Part shown: positions 35,570 to 41,138 of the stretch, piece by piece
How positions within the stretch are numbered: position 1 is the stretch's first letter
Layout: every line of letters begins with the position of its first letter
Source of the DNA: a virus
Lineage: Duplodnaviria; Heunggongvirae; Uroviricota; Caudoviricetes
Virus record (IMG/VR): IMGVR_UViG_2925891887_000001
Strand: one strand, 5' to 3'
Length of the DNA: 64,000 nt
Notes under the pieces: model-generated
Told to the model about the DNA's origin: nothing
The model's input: only the letters and a program-made list of their open reading frames with translations
Databases searched by the model: none
Position numbers and translations under genes: made by a program

Positions 35570-35633
35570 AAACCTCTTTCCTTAGTGCCTTTTGTATGTT
35601 ATTTGGCTATTATAATAAGTAAGTGATTACTTA

Positions 35634-36332
35634 ATGGATTGTAGCAATAAAATGGATGTAAAAATCACGATTTTGCAGGTTGATGTTGCCAACCTTCGCC
35701 CGAATACCTGGAACACCAATTCGGTTGGTGCGCAGAATTTCGAAAAACTGAAAGGTTCTATCGAAAAATTGGGCTTTTTTAAGCCAATTTTGGCTCGTGA
35801 ACTTGAAGATGGATTTTTTGAAATCCTCGGCGGCGAACATCGCTGGCGTGCCGCTATTGAGCAAGGAATTTCAACGGTTCCGGTGCTTTCTGTGGGCAAA
35901 ATTAGCGATGTCGTAGCTAAACAGATGTCACTGGTGGACAACGAGCGATACGGTGAAGACGACCAAATCGCATTGCAACGCTTCATTGAAGAAATTCAGT
36001 CAGAGCTTGACTATCAACTGTCTGAAATCGCCCCGTATGACGACGAAATCTCGATGGTTTTAGCAAAAGAGGCGGCAATCGACCTTGAAGCACTGGAGGC
36101 GTTGTCTCGTGGTAGTGATGAGCCTGTCGATACCGACAAACGAGAGAAAACCGAACGTGTGGGTGCGGAACATCAGACCATGCGCTTCAAAGTAACTTTC
36201 GATGCGTCAGATCGTGTTGCAGAAACCATAAAAAACATCATTAAAGAGCAGGCTATTAACACCGGTAATGAAATGGAGAACGCTGGTGAGGCTCTGGTGT
36301 GGCTGGTCGACTACTACAAGGAGCGTATGTAA
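35634..36332 (+). CDS. ParB/Srx-like nuclease-domain protein
   Basis: N-terminal ParB-type domain with box II-like GGEHRWRAA; acidic C-terminal half. Confidence 0.55.
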   Translation: MDCSNKMDVKITILQVDVANLRPNTWNTNSVGAQNFEKLKGSIEKLGFFKPILARELEDGFFEILGGEHRWRAAIEQGISTVPVLSVGKISDVVAKQMSLVDNERYGEDDQIALQRFIEEIQSELDYQLSEIAPYDDEISMVLAKEAAIDLEALEALSRGSDEPVDTDKREKTERVGAEHQTMRFKVTFDASDRVAETIKNIIKEQAINTGNEMENAGEALVWLVDYYKERM

Positions 36333-37000
36333 TGACCAAAAAGTTTGAAATCGTATATCGCGACCCGGCAGATCTTATTCCCTATGAGATGAATGCCAAA
36401 AAGCATGATGAACAGCAGATCCGAGATCTGGCCGCAGCCATTAAAAAGCGCGGATTTGACCAGCCAATTACGGTCGATAAGAACGACGTAATTATTACTG
36501 GCCACGGCCGCCGTGAGGCTGCAATTTTTGCTGGACTTGAGCGCGTACCGGTTATTGTTCGCGATGATCTCAGTGATGACGAGGTTCGTGCGAAGCGCCT
36601 TGAAGATAACCGACTTGCCAGCATTGATTACGATGCAATTAAGCTACAGAAAGAGCTTGAGTCGCTTGTTCTGGACGATATCGAGGTTTTCGGCTTTGAA
36701 GAGCGTGAGTTGAATGTTCTCGTTGGCAGTATGACAGAAGAAATGGACACCGACTCGCTAGTTATCGATCTTGGCGAAGAAACTAAACGACAGAAGGATG
36801 AACACACCGTGATCAGTCGTGAAGTTGCAGCGGAAGAAGTACGTGTTGTCGACGTATTGGGCTTTAAAACGCTCCCTGCTGGCTCTGCCATTGTTGTTGG
36901 TGATTTGCTTGCCCACATGGAAGAAATGACGGGAGAAAGCGGGGTAGACGCATTTGTGGCATATGCGGAGAAGATCTCTTCCGGGGAGATGGCTGCATGA
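36332..37000 (+). CDS. ParB/Srx-like domain protein (second copy)
   Basis: ITGHGRREAA motif; start overlaps upstream stop. Confidence 0.5.
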   Translation: MTKKFEIVYRDPADLIPYEMNAKKHDEQQIRDLAAAIKKRGFDQPITVDKNDVIITGHGRREAAIFAGLERVPVIVRDDLSDDEVRAKRLEDNRLASIDYDAIKLQKELESLVLDDIEVFGFEERELNVLVGSMTEEMDTDSLVIDLGEETKRQKDEHTVISREVAAEEVRVVDVLGFKTLPAGSAIVVGDLLAHMEEMTGESGVDAFVAYAEKISSGEMAA

Positions 37001-37635
37001 GCAAATACATCATCAACGTATCGTTTCAGACACGCGTAAATAAAACCACGCGCACGTTGGAAATCGCTGAGTCGTTCGGGCTTGGCCTGGACGAAAAAGA
37101 GTGGACGCTTTACGACAATCTGGAGCTGGAAGTGAAGCAGGGCGATGTGGTGTACATTACCGGCCAATCCGGTTCCGGCAAATCCGTTGTGCTGCGCGAG
37201 CTGCAACACCAGATGAAGGATGAAGGGCTATCTGTGGCCTCCATCGATGATTTTACCTTCGATAATGAGGTTAACGTCATTGACCAACTGGGCAAAACTA
37301 CCAGTGATGCGCTTGGGTTGTTATCTATGGCTGGTCTGAACGATGCATATCTGTTTGTTCGCAAGCCTTCTGAAATGTCAGACGGTCAGAAATATCGTCT
37401 CAAGATTGCCAAACTGATTGAGTCAGGCGCTAAAGTGTGGGCTGCTGACGAGTTCGGCGCTGTTCTCGACCGTGTAACCGCTCAGGTTGTGGCATCTAAC
37501 CTCCAGCGTGCCGCTCGAAAGGTTGGTGCGACGGTAATGGTGGCGACGACTCACGAAGACCTGAAGAACGCGCTGCGCCCGGATATGCAGATCACCAAGC
37601 ACTACAAAGAACGCGTGAAGGTGGAATATGCCTGA
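36997..37635 (+). CDS. ABC-type ATPase (single nucleotide-binding domain)
   Basis: Walker A GQSGSGKS, signature-like SDGQKYRL, Walker B/D-loop VWAADEFGAVLD, H-loop TTHED. Confidence 0.6.
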   Translation: MSKYIINVSFQTRVNKTTRTLEIAESFGLGLDEKEWTLYDNLELEVKQGDVVYITGQSGSGKSVVLRELQHQMKDEGLSVASIDDFTFDNEVNVIDQLGKTTSDALGLLSMAGLNDAYLFVRKPSEMSDGQKYRLKIAKLIESGAKVWAADEFGAVLDRVTAQVVASNLQRAARKVGATVMVATTHEDLKNALRPDMQITKHYKERVKVEYA

Positions 37636-37882
37636 TTTGAAGATCGTAGAGCTGAAGCCATCGAAAGAGACTGATAACAACAACGTGGAAGTCATCCGCC
37701 TGCTGGAAGAAGCACTTCAGCACGCCAGAGAAGGAAAAAGCCAGAGCCTGGCGCTGTTGATGATCAACAACGACGGCAGTGTTCTTGATTGCTGGCATAA
37801 CGGCGGGCGCCCGTATGTCATGGTAGGGGCGATGGAGTCTCTTCGCCTGGATTTCATCAATGCCAATATCGAGCGCAGGTGA
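37628..37882 (+). CDS. hypothetical protein (84 aa)
   Basis: Overlapping start/stop with neighbours. Confidence 0.4.
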   Translation: MPDLKIVELKPSKETDNNNVEVIRLLEEALQHAREGKSQSLALLMINNDGSVLDCWHNGGRPYVMVGAMESLRLDFINANIERR

Positions 37883-37887
37883 TCGAG

Positions 37888-38778
37888 ATGGCAGATATCA
37901 TCATCAAACGCTACCGCCCTGAAGAGTTTCCGCGTCATCTGGACTTTCTGGAGCGAATGACTGTCACAAAGGGAACTGTAGAGGACTGGCACGCTCTTAA
38001 GTCGCTTCACTACAAAACAGACGGCAAACCTTTCGCGCCAACTTACTATCGCTGCGAACTTGATGACCGTCTGGTGGGCGTCGTGGTTATGGCTTACCCG
38101 AAACTACTGCTGGCACCTCGCCACCGCATGTTTCCTAAGTTGAAACCAACCACTAATACCACCGTGGCTAACCAGTACTGGGGTCGGTACGTGAATAACA
38201 ACTTTGCGGTGATCAGTCGCTCAGTTGTGGATACTCAGTATCGTGGCGTAGGCGTCTCTTATCGAATGATTAACCTGGTTAGCAGGATGCATGACCGGCC
38301 AATCATTGAGATCCAGTCCTCGATGAGCAAATACAATCCCTTCGCCATGAAAGCAGGGTTTAAGTTCATCCGCCCTGAGCGACCGAAGAGCTATGAAAGT
38401 GCACTGCGTGTATTCCAGCGCCATTTCCGTTCCGACCCGGGTGATAACGAGGCGATCGTCAAAGAGTTGTTCGCAATGAGCGAGTCTCGTCGTCGCCGTG
38501 CACTGCGTGATCTGGTGGCGGACTACCACAAGAACAGTTCCCTGGCAAAAGCTGGGCGGAATCGTGGCACGACGATTCAGGACATTGCCGACAGTCTGGT
38601 GGACGAGGCCAGCATTGTGAAGCTGCTCAAGGACATTCACAACCTGAGCTTTACGTCTCCGTTGTATGGTGTGTACCGAAACCCTGACTTTGGCCGTCGA
38701 CTGCCTGACACGCTGCCACTGCTGGCATTCGACAAACAACCTTTGGATAAACCGTTAGAAATTGCTTTACCGGCATAA
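37888..38778 (+). CDS. hypothetical protein with GNAT-like acetyltransferase motif
   Basis: Motif A-like QYRGVGVS after a beta-strand segment; weak. Confidence 0.35.
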   Translation: MADIIIKRYRPEEFPRHLDFLERMTVTKGTVEDWHALKSLHYKTDGKPFAPTYYRCELDDRLVGVVVMAYPKLLLAPRHRMFPKLKPTTNTTVANQYWGRYVNNNFAVISRSVVDTQYRGVGVSYRMINLVSRMHDRPIIEIQSSMSKYNPFAMKAGFKFIRPERPKSYESALRVFQRHFRSDPGDNEAIVKELFAMSESRRRRALRDLVADYHKNSSLAKAGRNRGTTIQDIADSLVDEASIVKLLKDIHNLSFTSPLYGVYRNPDFGRRLPDTLPLLAFDKQPLDKPLEIALPA

Positions 38779-38787
38779 GGATTTGCC

Positions 38788-39054
38788 ATGACGTTAACCG
38801 ATAAACAAAAGGACATCATCAAAACGCTCAATCTCGGTTATGAGCGAGGTCATCTACTTGACCTGGACGAATTGCTTGAAGTTTTGCCGTACAAGACAAC
38901 CAAGCAAAGTATCCAGTTCTCAATTCGCGCTCTGATAAAAAAGGGGCTGGTGGAGAAAGGGCATACGCGCCAACGCAGTGACAATCGCTATCACCGCCGA
39001 ACTCTTGGGTTAACTACTTTAGGTCGAGCCAAAGCGAAGTTACTGGTGATGTAA
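38788..39054 (+). CDS. small putative winged-helix DNA-binding protein (88 aa)
   Basis: Basic helical protein; pattern only. Confidence 0.35.
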   Translation: MTLTDKQKDIIKTLNLGYERGHLLDLDELLEVLPYKTTKQSIQFSIRALIKKGLVEKGHTRQRSDNRYHRRTLGLTTLGRAKAKLLVM

Positions 39055-39056
39055 TC

Positions 39057-39154
39057 GGTCTGGGAGCTTATTTAAAGACCTGCTTCTGTATATATAAATA
39101 ATAAGTAACTTATTAAATATATACGGAAGCAGGCTTCGTAAGACATGCCAGACC
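39057..39154. repeat. nested inverted-repeat element R2, 95 bp upstream of terS
   Basis: gacctgcttctgtatatat ... atatatacggaagcaggc inside ggtctggg ... ccagacc. Confidence 0.6.
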
Positions 39155-39249
39155 TAATTAAACACCCCAGAAAACAAGTTGGTTAGCAGATGCAGTAAAC
39201 AAGTTGTTTTAGAGCGCATGGACGCGCTCTGTGTGTTTTAGAGGGATCT

Positions 39250-39882
39250 ATGACGGTCGAAAAAGACGAGGTAAAAACTCGCCTGACACCAGCGGAGTGG
39301 GCCGAAGCTGAAGCCAAATGGACGTCAGGCGAATATACACTCTCAAAGCTGGAGGAAGAGTACGGCATTCGTCGTGAAACACTCTCCAGACATTTCAAAA
39401 AGCGAGGATTAGAGAAAGGCGCGGACTCTGTTGGGAAGATGGTTCGTGAGTCTCTTAAATCTGACGCAGAGCTTCGCGCTAAAGCCCGTGCGGAAAAGAT
39501 AGAAGAACGTCGTACACGTTATGACGGCTGGGCGTATGCGTTGGGGCAGATGGTGATGGTCGAAGTCACTACGGCCAAACGTGAGGGTAAGCCTTTAGGG
39601 GCGATTGAGGATTCTCTCAAGAGCTTACAGAGAGCCAGTAATACCCTTGCAAAATGCTTTGAAGTTTCGTCCAAAGCATTGGGCATGGATCATGCGGAAA
39701 ATGACGAGGAAGAAATTCCGAACCTGGTATTTGGTGAGCTTACGCCTTCCCAGGTGGCGAAATTACGTCAGGAAGACGACGAGCCTGAAATCATCGATGA
39801 CGAATTGCTTGAGACGTTGGAAGAAGAAGCTCTAAGCGAATTTGATGCGACAGATGATGGAAGTGAAGGGGAGGACGAATAA
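39250..39882 (+). CDS. terminase small subunit (putative)
   Basis: Position immediately upstream of terL; N-terminal HTH-like region, very acidic C-terminus. Confidence 0.55.
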   Translation: MTVEKDEVKTRLTPAEWAEAEAKWTSGEYTLSKLEEEYGIRRETLSRHFKKRGLEKGADSVGKMVRESLKSDAELRAKARAEKIEERRTRYDGWAYALGQMVMVEVTTAKREGKPLGAIEDSLKSLQRASNTLAKCFEVSSKALGMDHAENDEEEIPNLVFGELTPSQVAKLRQEDDEPEIIDDELLETLEEEALSEFDATDDGSEGEDE

Positions 39883-41138
39883 TGGCAATCCCGTCCTCGC
39901 TCAGTCTTGTGCAACTGCATTCTGGACAGATGAAAGTCTTCCAGTCTCCGCATCGATTTAAAGTTGTTTGTGCTGGTCGACGCTGGGGAAAATCCCGGTT
40001 GTCGATCTCCACTATTATTCGTGCGGCGGCAAAGGAAAAAAAGCAAAGGGTCTGGTATGTCGCTCCTACTTACCAGATGGCTCGCCAGATTTTGTGGGAC
40101 GATCTACAGGAAGTTCTGCCTCGTAAGTGGGTTAGGAAAAAGAACGACACCACGATGACAATCGTGTTGAAGAACGGTTCGGAGATCGCCCTCAAAGGTG
40201 CTGATAAGCCTGACACTCTGCGCGGCGTAGCGTTGCATTTTGTAGTGCTTGATGAATTTCAGGATATGAAGGCTGACACCTGGTACAAGGTGTTACGACC
40301 TACTCTTTCATCGACACGCGGCGGTGCACTGATCATTGGTACGCCAAAAGGCTTCTCGGAATTTCACAAACTGTGGACTATAGGCCAGAACGTAGAGCTG
40401 CAAAGAAAGGGACAGTGGAAGAGCTGGCAGTTTGTAACTGCCGATTCTCCGTTTGTGCCTACGGCGGAAATTGAAGCTGCTAAGAACGATATGGACCCCA
40501 AATCGTTCGCTCAGGAGTACCTGGCCAGCTTTGAGAACATGTCCGGGCGCGTTTACTACCCGTTCGATCGTAACGTGCATGTAAAACCGCTTCAGTTCAA
40601 CCCTCGGTTGCCTATATGGGTAGGGCAGGACTTCAACATTGACCCGATGTCTTCAGTAATTTTGCAACCTCAGCCAAATGGTGAGCTATGGGCAATTGAT
40701 GAATTGGTGCTCTTTTCCTCTAACACGGCAGAAGTTTGTGATGAGCTTGAGAGACGCTTCTGGCGCTGGAAATCACAGGTAACGGTATTTCCAGATCCGG
40801 CAGGTGCTTATCGCCAACATGCTCGTGGGGAGTCTGACGTAGACATATTCAAAGAGAAGGGATTCTTACGTGTCGATTATTCGAAAAAGCACCCGCCAAT
40901 TGCGGATCGTGTTAATGCTGTTAACCGAATGCTGATGTCCGCATCTGGAGATATCCGGCTGTATATCGATCCGAAGTGCAAGCATTTGATTGATTCACTG
41001 GAAAAAGTCATCTACAAGCCTGGAACACGAGATATGGATAAGACAGGTGGCATTGAGCATAGTGCAGACGCATTGGGCTATCCAGTACATCGTAGGTATC
41101 CAGTCAAAAACCGTGTTATTCTTGGTGGTTCTCGATAG
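39882..41138 (+). CDS. terminase large subunit
   Basis: Walker A CAGRRWGKS, Walker B VVLDEF, C-terminal nuclease-type acidic residues (VGQDFN). Confidence 0.85.
   Translation: MAIPSSLSLVQLHSGQMKVFQSPHRFKVVCAGRRWGKSRLSISTIIRAAAKEKKQRVWYVAPTYQMARQILWDDLQEVLPRKWVRKKNDTTMTIVLKNGSEIALKGADKPDTLRGVALHFVVLDEFQDMKADTWYKVLRPTLSSTRGGALIIGTPKGFSEFHKLWTIGQNVELQRKGQWKSWQFVTADSPFVPTAEIEAAKNDMDPKSFAQEYLASFENMSGRVYYPFDRNVHVKPLQFNPRLPIWVGQDFNIDPMSSVILQPQPNGELWAIDELVLFSSNTAEVCDELERRFWRWKSQVTVFPDPAGAYRQHARGESDVDIFKEKGFLRVDYSKKHPPIADRVNAVNRMLMSASGDIRLYIDPKCKHLIDSLEKVIYKPGTRDMDKTGGIEHSADALGYPVHRRYPVKNRVILGGSR

Follow-up and report, generated by a model that had tools for sequence, protein, structure and literature searches.

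What does a tailed virus gain from an operon in which two ParB-like proteins, an ABC-type ATPase and an acyltransferase-like protein are encoded directly upstream of the terminase? The question is raised by a 64,000-nucleotide stretch of Caudoviricetes DNA (IMG/VR record IMGVR_UViG_2925891887_000001), referred to here as the window, in which six genes, g1 to g6, all in the same direction and overlapping or abutting one another, occupy positions 35634 to 39054. We find that the combination of ParB, ABC and GNAT proteins is not peculiar to this phage and constitutes a widespread and ancient viral module. From motifs and gene neighborhoods we tentatively favor, at something short of an even chance, a reading in which this module acts as a nucleoside triphosphate (NTP)-driven, ParB-targeted acyl-coenzyme A (CoA) transferase on replicated viral DNA before packaging. 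The six genes are:

35634 to 36332, + strand: g1, an orphan ParB_N-only protein with the motif GGEHRWRAA (Pfam ParB_N 3.3e-13; phrog_723 2e-79)
36332 to 37000, + strand: g2, an orphan ParB_N-only protein with the motif GHGRREAA (Pfam ParB_N 1.4e-8; phrog_930 7e-112)
36997 to 37635, + strand: g3, a soluble minimal ABC ATPase (Pfam ABC_tran 5.9e-13; phrog_293 7e-58)
37628 to 37882, + strand: g4, an 84-aa accessory open reading frame (ORF) in a variable slot between the ABC and GNAT genes (phrog_796 5e-47)
37879 to 38778, + strand: g5, a GNAT-fold acyltransferase, probable start ATG 37888
38788 to 39054, + strand: g6, an 88-aa MarR-like winged-helix DNA-binding protein as predicted by an AlphaFold2 model (pLDDT 81)

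All six ORFs fall in PHROG families (E values from 5e-47 to 2e-165), and chance reading frames are therefore excluded. The operon diverges from a DEAD/ResIII helicase gene across a region of 64 bp and ends at a long palindrome (R2), after which come a small terminase (TerS)-like gene, the large terminase (TerL) gene and the portal gene. An earlier note on this DNA, made from the letters alone, had described a six-gene operon with these boundaries and had called two ParB-like genes, a stand-alone ABC ATPase (GQSGSGKS, SDGQKYRL, WAADEF), a GNAT-like protein (QYRGVGVS) and a small DNA-binding protein. The layout was recovered in the ORF and repeat analyses, and the calls stood: Pfam ParB_N and PHROG matches for both ParBs, the full set of ABC motifs with an ABC_tran match for g3, a GNAT fold with a CoA motif for g5, and a modeled winged helix for g6. 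The 3.4-kb operon region is 99% identical to that of Escherichia phages CMS-2020a and Cyrano and 86% identical to that of Salmonella phage SSU5, and the module sequence recurs with 100% identity on a 109-kb E. coli plasmid. It is present in 247 of 5,426 complete E. coli genomes and is plasmid-borne in every one. The identity to SSU5-like phages together with this plasmid-only occurrence identifies the window as part of an SSU5-like phage-plasmid, a group reported as frequent carriers of antibiotic-resistance genes.

The strongest evidence that ParB, ABC and GNAT form one machine comes from four Bathyarchaeia proteins of 637 to 661 aa that carry a ParB_N domain of the GEHR type, like that of g1, an ABC domain and a GNAT domain in one chain; their ParB part is detected by a custom hidden Markov model at ~1e-17, and three of the four score 17 to 24 bits, below cut-off, with Pfam ParB_N. 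Fusion of the two enzymatic components alone is found in many viruses. A first IMG/VR scan with the g5 family returned near-identical SSU5-like loci only, and an exhaustive profile search with the same family gave 967 matches, many of them distant, 440 to 560 aa long and with the g5-like part beginning at about residue 200 to 235. All 10 of the long distant homologs scanned possess an N-terminal ABC_tran domain, and g3 matches the ABC half of Leptospira phage LE4 gp15 and of Gordonia phage BiggityBass gp2 at ~1e-13. What the fused proteins have in common with g3 and g5 includes Walker A, signature, Walker B and H-loop as well as the motifs FHY[KR], GRN/PRH, ISRxV..YRGxGxG and E-x-x-[SA]-x-M..NPF..AG. 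Because the fused family holds every motif of both proteins, we read g3 and g5 as the split form of a fused, COG2401-like ABC-GNAT protein. The two are likewise separate genes in Pseudomonas phage nickie, a Rhizobium phage and an Ectothiorhodospira contig, and in two cases the fused ABC-GNAT homolog is joined to a family B DNA polymerase.

The surveys of gene neighborhoods place the module beside the terminase again and again. With g5 as query, tblastn found only 31 cultured phage records, all of them elements of 84-122 kb and mostly siphoviruses of 105-122 kb, comprising SSU5-like phages, Pseudomonas Nickievirus, Rhizobium phages RHEph10, RHph and B1VFA, Stenotrophomonas phages and one Xanthomonas phage. 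At 41-45% identity the gene order is maintained in nickie, in RHph_N1_15 and in the Ectothiorhodospira contig, the conserved arrangement being helicase (divergent), ParB1, ParB2, ABC, variable slot, GNAT, small winged-helix gene, TerS-like gene, TerL and portal. As Nickievirus phages are described without temperate behavior (PMC8537276), the module is not tied to plasmid life.

In bacterial viral contigs, surveyed with actinophage and leptophage fused proteins as seeds, a ParB-like gene stands at -1 of the fused ABC-GNAT gene in 44 of 67 loci, and TerL lies within three genes downstream of the module in ~39 of 72, accompanied by TerS and portal genes; a co-occurrence analysis of this kind had been proposed in the earlier note as a check. 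The TerLs concerned span four Pfam families (Terminase_6N 21, Terminase_3 8, TerL_ATPase 7, GpA 3). The order ParB, ABC-GNAT, terminase can be read in LE4, in BiggityBass (genes 1, 2 and 4) and in Gordonia phage Jace. Lactococcus phage P335 has ParB, ABC and GNAT as Orf23-25, followed by TerS and TerL, and Oenococcus phage unk162 carries ParB, ABC and GNAT, the three genes for which the order is known there, at the end of its circular record. In archaeal IMG/VR viral contigs the gene directly upstream on the same strand encodes at least 440 aa in 54 of 76 loci, mostly at a gap of -4 to +7 nt, and Terminase_6N is present in 47 of 50 of such neighbors; in genomes of Nitrososphaeria, Caldarchaeales and Bathyarchaeia, TerL occupies position -1 of the fused gene in 41 of 72 loci. 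No ParB_N match was found among the 148 proteins encoded by the three genes upstream of archaeal TerL. Exceptions to terminase adjacency are fused genes situated by a primase and a helicase (Nonlabens phage P12024S), in a DNA polymerase locus (Enterococcus phage 9184) or beside a gene for the DNA polymerase III alpha subunit, and the common denominator of all these contexts is viral DNA replication and packaging. The claim of one functional unit thus finds its support in the two kinds of fusion and in this recurrent terminase adjacency.

Several observations made along the way concern the fused genes and their neighbors. One distant homolog of 847 aa (P0163) has an intein with a LAGLIDADG endonuclease inside its ABC domain, and some of the neighboring archaeal TerL genes also are apparently intein-bearing. 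Among the 50 archaeal TerL proteins, four also hit Pfam's NAT10/TmcA helicase domain (best E 2.4e-7), probably through shared P-loop similarity; the match is a curious one in that TmcA couples an ATPase to a GNAT that acetylates cytidine. In P335 (Orf24/Orf25; L257 4330-4600) and unk162 (gp49/gp50; L256 4450-4730) the GNAT frame extends upstream of the annotated start, and the extension, which encodes the conserved motif W..F..YHYL, lies in the -1 frame over the last part of the ABC ORF, close to T-rich runs. This arrangement suggests a programmed -1 frameshift that would give rise both to the ABC protein alone and to an ABC-GNAT fusion.

The two enzymes of the module appear intact. In g3, which scores 50 bits with ABC_tran against a cut-off of 25, a Walker A motif (GQSGSGKS), signature (SDGQKYR), Walker B motif (AADEF) and H-loop (TTHED) are all present, and these catalytic motifs are invariant or almost so across the fused family; g3 is a minimal yet complete soluble ABC ATPase. 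No membrane permease or solute-binding gene was found in the operon or in the conserved neighborhood of any lineage read; with these partners absent, the database label 'ABC transporter' is a misnomer and was rejected. The g5 protein combines a GNAT fold at about residues 30-165 with a conserved C-terminal domain at about 170-299. Its acyl-CoA pyrophosphate-type motif reads R122-G-V-G125-V-S127, with R122 and G125 invariant in 36 homologs; the counterpart in the fused family is YRGIGLG, and the general form is R-G-x-G-x-[GAS]. A conserved Glu on strand beta5, as read from the model, is a candidate catalytic residue. Neither g5 nor the g5 family profile matched any solved structure by sequence search, and neither NCBIfam nor PADLOC gave an informative family for g5 or g4. 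The CoA motif, the Glu and the neighboring donor genes described below argue that g5 is an active acyl-CoA-dependent transferase.

These donor genes are found in a Jace-like sub-clade, in which the ABC-GNAT gene is followed by PanD (aspartate decarboxylase, 2e-33), a truncated CoA-transferase of family III, TerS and TerL; in BiggityBass a formyltransferase follows ABC-GNAT instead. The succession of PanD and CoA-transferase III after ABC-GNAT suggests the synthesis of a special acyl-CoA donor, possibly beta-alanyl-CoA. One viral contig (L263 878-4138) carries two ABC-GNAT genes, of 366 and 367 aa, with PanD and a CoA-transferase-like gene between them and with all module genes upstream of TerS (Terminase_4) and TerL. 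The lineage comprising SSU5 and the Ectothiorhodospira contig invests heavily in nucleotide metabolism: the latter, a distant relative (L003 1-3600), has close to the module genes for an anaerobic ribonucleotide reductase (NrdD, along with its radical-SAM activase) and for a dCMP deaminase, and SSU5 at the corresponding place encodes aerobic NrdAB, thymidylate synthase and dihydrofolate reductase.

The ParB components are reduced in comparison with partition proteins. Their Pfam ParB_N scores are 49.9 bits (g1) and 35.1 bits (g2) against a cut-off of 26.3, and the partition ParB model TIGR00180 gives them 43.3 and 42.9 bits, under its cut-off of 58.45. Neither has a Pfam match to a helix-turn-helix (HTH) or ParB C-terminal domain, and alignments to solved ParBs stop at, or fade beyond, the N-terminal domain. 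The g1 protein, for which an alternative start is possible at 35651, aligns with the NTP-binding domain of Spo0J/ParB/Noc, with GGEHRWRAA in the place of box II (GERRxRAA); g2, whose ORF opens at GTG 36299 and is annotated in relatives from ATG 36332, has the box II variant GHGRREAA, and both lack the box I QPR. The g2 protein also matches the ParB N-terminal part of ParB-methyltransferase fusions (phrog_498 3e-32; PADLOC MTase_II 3e-17), and this resemblance accounts for stray 'DNA methylase' labels in relatives. The name 'DNA methyltransferase' was rejected for g2, which inherits it from those fusions and is devoid of the methyltransferase domain. A ParB of the g2 type immediately precedes the ABC gene in P335 (phmmer 4e-23), as it does in an Oenococcus phage.

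Not every gene of the operon belongs to the unit. The earlier note had counted the 84-aa g4 as a member; it is carried by 38 of 80 close IMG/VR relatives and missing from the other 42, is missing as well from PhiR41_1 and Cyrano, and has no Pfam family match, and it is a dispensable variable insert outside the functional unit. The junction of ABC and GNAT is an insertion hot-spot at which other lineages hold unrelated small ORFs, including Phage_gp49_66, an unannotated 96-aa ORF and RyR-domain ORFs in Ectothiorhodospira, and DUF2829 and others in a Rhizobium phage.

The last gene, g6, is modeled with the topology H-H-H-beta hairpin-H, and Foldseek aligns it with MepR, MarR, ZitR and APE_0880a (TM 0.73-0.77, E 2e-4). 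It covers only about half of these targets (TMt 0.45-0.5; MarR proteins are ~140 aa long), has neither the N- and C-terminal MarR dimerization helices nor a Pfam MarR match, and obtains from Pfam only LexA_DNA_bind at E 0.072; the model identifies it as a MarR-like winged helix. Homologs occupy the position after GNAT in Ectothiorhodospira (8.6e-10), nickie (8.8e-7) and a Rhizobium phage (0.05). DNA elements flank the operon, and the terminase genes lie downstream:

35612 to 35633, no strand: operator-like palindrome ATAATAAGTAAGTGATTACTTA, abutting the g1 start in the region divergent with the helicase gene
39079 to 39133, no strand: long AT-rich palindrome R2, outer 17-nt arms 94% complementary, inner 16-nt arms 88%
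39168 to 39231, + strand: a pair of 17-nt direct repeats, CAGAAAACAAGTTGGTT and CAGTAAACAAGTTGTTT, whose starts are 25 nt apart, followed by a GC hairpin and a T-run
39250 to 39882, + strand: TerS-like DNA-binding protein (phrog_867 2e-100)
39882 to 41138, + strand: TerL, a conserved downstream neighbor whose Ectothiorhodospira homolog has Terminase_6N

The 11-mer ATAATAAGTAA occurs in the upstream palindrome at 35612-35622 and in the center of R2 at 39098-39108, and these are its sole exact copies in the 64 kb; with one mismatch allowed there are 4 matches against 0.89 expected. The palindromes that contain it may be operators for the MarR-like g6 or, alternatively, cos or pac elements. SSU5 and PhiR41_1 both retain R2, which separates g6 from the TerS-like gene, and likewise the direct repeats and hairpin just before the ribosome-binding site of the latter gene. 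The repeats may serve for terminase binding, and at the hairpin transcription of the late operon may be terminated or antiterminated. In GenBank/RefSeq, the linear SSU5 record starts and stops in the center of the R2 palindrome (L001 9407-9483; L007 1-150), a break that could be a true, cos-like genome end or an assembly break at the hairpin. A consensus sigma-70 scan of the + strand found no promoter for the operon.

How might such components work together? The domain identities, the three-component fusions in other viruses, the terminase adjacency and the intact ATPase and CoA-type motifs are what is observed, and from them we infer one nucleotide-driven acyl-transfer machine composed of g1, g2, g3 and g5, to which g6 would be added as a DNA-binding partner specific to the lineage. 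In a first step, the two ParB_N-only proteins would bind NTP and phage DNA, perhaps with the help of g6 and possibly loading at the palindromes that flank the operon and adjoin the terminase genes. The ParBs would then recruit the soluble ABC ATPase, whose ATP-dependent dimerization would engage the DNA, and the ATPase in turn would position or activate the GNAT protein. The latter would transfer an acyl group from acyl-CoA to an amine acceptor, most likely the exocyclic amine of a DNA base. The pay-off would be a mark confined to capsid-bound virus DNA, for example against host nucleases. A bolder generalization, which we hold to be somewhat doubtful, is that an ancient class of virus DNA marking exists, in which a ParB-type NTP switch loaded on the viral genome and an ABC ATPase driven by ATP enable a GNAT domain to acylate DNA bases with lineage-specific acyl-CoA donors, coupled to packaging, in tailed viruses of both Bacteria and Thermoproteota. 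Acetyl would be the group donated in some of these viruses and, possibly, beta-alanyl in those with PanD and CoA-transferase, and the archaeal hosts would be the Nitrososphaeria, Caldarchaeales and Bathyarchaeia.

An unlikely alternative, though the main rival, is that the module is accessory packaging machinery with no base modification at all: the ParBs, with their nuclease/NTPase fold, and the ABC ATPase would assist the terminase in locating, bending or cutting the site of packaging, much as HNH proteins do for HK97-type terminases, and the GNAT protein would either acylate one of the packaging proteins or serve as a regulator that senses CoA. Many phages retain beside their terminase genes an accessory nuclease-fold gene, as exemplified by the HNH proteins of HK97-type packaging machines. 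In favor of a packaging role stand the adjacency to terminases of four TerL families, the translational coupling to TerL in archaeal proviruses and the end of the module at a palindrome and direct repeats right before the TerS-like gene, with the SSU5 record cut inside that palindrome, and also the intein in the ABC domain of one homolog, an occurrence resembling that in essential DNA enzymes. The fold of the HNH proteins is unrelated to the module proteins, and they have no ATPase or acyltransferase partner. The 179-aa ParB-like protein of LE4 (L254 4324-4863) was detected by mass spectrometry in CsCl-purified virions, although the authors of that study were undecided between contamination and encapsidation (PMC6078989). 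Weighing against a packaging role, PanD, CoA-transferase and formyltransferase neighbors indicate biosynthesis of a small group rather than DNA cutting, several copies lie in replication modules distant from any terminase, most tailed phages lack such genes and package their DNA anyway, and nuclease activity of ParB is not established in this subfamily.

It is improbable that the module serves host take-over or anti-defense, with the ABC ATPase as a clamp and a host protein, a nucleotide or signaling molecule, a polyamine or an aminoacyl-tRNA as the acylated target. Fusion to and adjacency with ParB and the persistent placement in replication and packaging regions point to DNA instead, the conservation of the module in viruses that are lytic, temperate, plasmid-prophage or archaeal speaks against a counter-defense specific to a host, and PADLOC gave no whole-system match. 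Very improbable is a purely regulatory module, in which KorB-like ParBs and the MarR-like g6 would act on the flanking palindromes to switch late transcription, modulated by the ATPase and the GNAT protein. The 11-mer core shared by the operon promoter region and the palindrome downstream of g6, the terminator-like hairpin ahead of the TerS-like gene, the MarR-type winged helix of g6 and the position of the P335 module after the late activator Alt would all fit, but the triple fusion, the acyl-donor genes and the conservation of intact ATPase and GNAT motifs in bacteria and archaea are left unexplained, and g6 is limited to one lineage.

Plasmid partition, in which the two ParBs would be centromere-binding proteins segregating the phage-plasmid as databases label them, is scarcely credible, and we conclude that the module is not a partition system: in its favor stand the ParB_N domains, the RefSeq name of g1 ('ParB/RepB/Spo0J family partition protein'), the plasmid state of the element in all 247 E. 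coli genomes and the filing of duplicated ParB genes of related Acinetobacter phage-plasmids under partition by Pfeifer et al. (PMC7969092), but g1 and g2, besides their missing HTH and sub-threshold TIGR00180 scores, show no LG[KR]G-type ParA-binding motif on reading their first 30 residues, no ParA gene is present in the operon or its flanks, and the module occurs also in phages described as non-temperate in behavior (Nickievirus, PMC8537276) or as lytic (LE4), among integrated proviruses and in archaea. SSU5 has, ~30 kb from the module, a ParA-like gene of its own accompanied by small ORFs as partners, and plasmid NZ_CP195468.1, in which the module is identical, has an AAA ATPase gene of the same size at the syntenic place.

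Acylation of DNA and accessory packaging remain as the best-supported readings, the former as a DNA modification or anti-restriction function. Seen as a whole, the earlier interpretation holds in treating the genes as one unit, in denying them an ordinary partition role and in leaving them unplaced among known pathways, and fails in counting the 84-aa ORF as a member. If the module does acylate DNA, it would include the first CoA-dependent DNA acyltransferase and would represent a new family of phage DNA hypermodification present in ~5% of complete E. coli genomes; the ParB fold and soluble ABC ATPases would acquire a new job, and an explanation would be at hand for a conserved block that hundreds of records, from phages, plasmids and archaeal proviruses, misannotate as 'partition protein', 'ABC transporter' and 'hypothetical'. 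If instead it assists packaging, the terminase machine would have a new and widespread component, to be set beside the HNH proteins of HK97-like phages. Either reading can be tested in E. coli, Lactococcus and Gordonia phages by standard genetics and mass spectrometry.

How does the module compare with systems already described? Full-text literature searches found no paper describing a ParB/ABC/GNAT module and PADLOC assigned it to no defense system, which bears out the earlier statement that it fits no characterized phage pathway. Parts of it have counterparts nonetheless. A phage thymine dioxygenase depends on a ParB-like activator that has no DNA-binding domain (PMC13229309), fusions join ParB-CTPase folds to DNA methyltransferases and to acetyltransferases (PMC12704722), and the Dnd and Dpd DNA-modification systems put ParB-like proteins together with either an ABC ATPase or a different modifying enzyme (PMC10853773, PMC12839542). 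The 5mYOX dioxygenase with its ParB, the ParB-methyltransferase fusions and the DpdB-DpdA pair thus likewise have an orphan ParB fold beside or fused to a DNA-modifying enzyme; the module differs in that two ParB paralogs are present and the partner is a GNAT protein with an ABC ATPase in place of a dioxygenase, methyltransferase or transglycosylase. Dnd also joins a ParB-like DndB and an ABC ATPase, DndD, with the DNA-modifying activity of DndA/C/E. The g3 protein, in contrast, lacks the coiled-coil insert of DndD, the chemistry is another one, and the module is viral and Dnd cellular. For g1-g3 the PADLOC scan yielded neither DndB nor DndD, and of the Dnd models only DndF came up, weakly, for g3 (0.0021); no cysteine desulfurase or PAPS-reductase gene is present near the operon.

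Comparable in its logic is TmcA/NAT10, which unites a P-loop ATPase, a GNAT domain and a further C-terminal domain and acetylates cytidine in RNA; its ATPase is helicase-like, whereas that of the module is of the ABC type, and neither g3 nor g5 has a Pfam match to NAT10/TmcA domains. The two halves of the COG2401-type 'ABC-type ATPase fused to a predicted acetyltransferase domain' (MK0520-like) are homologous to g3 and g5, and annotators of Cyrano and at JGI already apply this type of name to g5 homologs. Here the halves are two genes with a variable slot between them, and the COG2401-like family itself is functionally uncharacterized.

A further comparison is with Mom of phage Mu, a tRNA-dependent DNA adenine aminoacyltransferase and the sole GNAT protein shown to act on double-stranded DNA, which employs a Gly-tRNA donor late in infection (PMC13219725). 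Both Mom and g5 are GNAT-fold proteins encoded at the end of a non-structural region, and the best BFVD structural match of g5 is a Mom protein (E 6.5e-5). In a weak hhalign alignment, an invariant H-Y pair and Arg of the g5 family are matched with the functionally important Mom residues H58, Y59 and R111, and the essential S124 of Mom falls on a variable G/A/S position. We take this structural and residue likeness as a lead only. Membership of g5 in the Mom family was rejected: PF25680, which all Mom homologs carry, is absent from the g5 Pfam matches at E up to 0.1, and direct profile comparison gave a probability of 0.4% for the g5 family, an essentially negative result on account of which g5 is not filed under Mom, and 10% for a second alignment (A2). 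Mom acts alone, whereas g5 is tied to an ABC ATPase and ParBs and has an extra C-terminal domain; and g5 retains the glycine-rich CoA-pyrophosphate motif, which Mom does not possess. This motif, together with the neighboring PanD and CoA-transferase genes, suggests acyl-CoA rather than a charged tRNA as the donor of the g5 family, and if DNA is indeed the substrate, the module would stand beside Mu Mom as a second and far more widespread GNAT-based modification of DNA.

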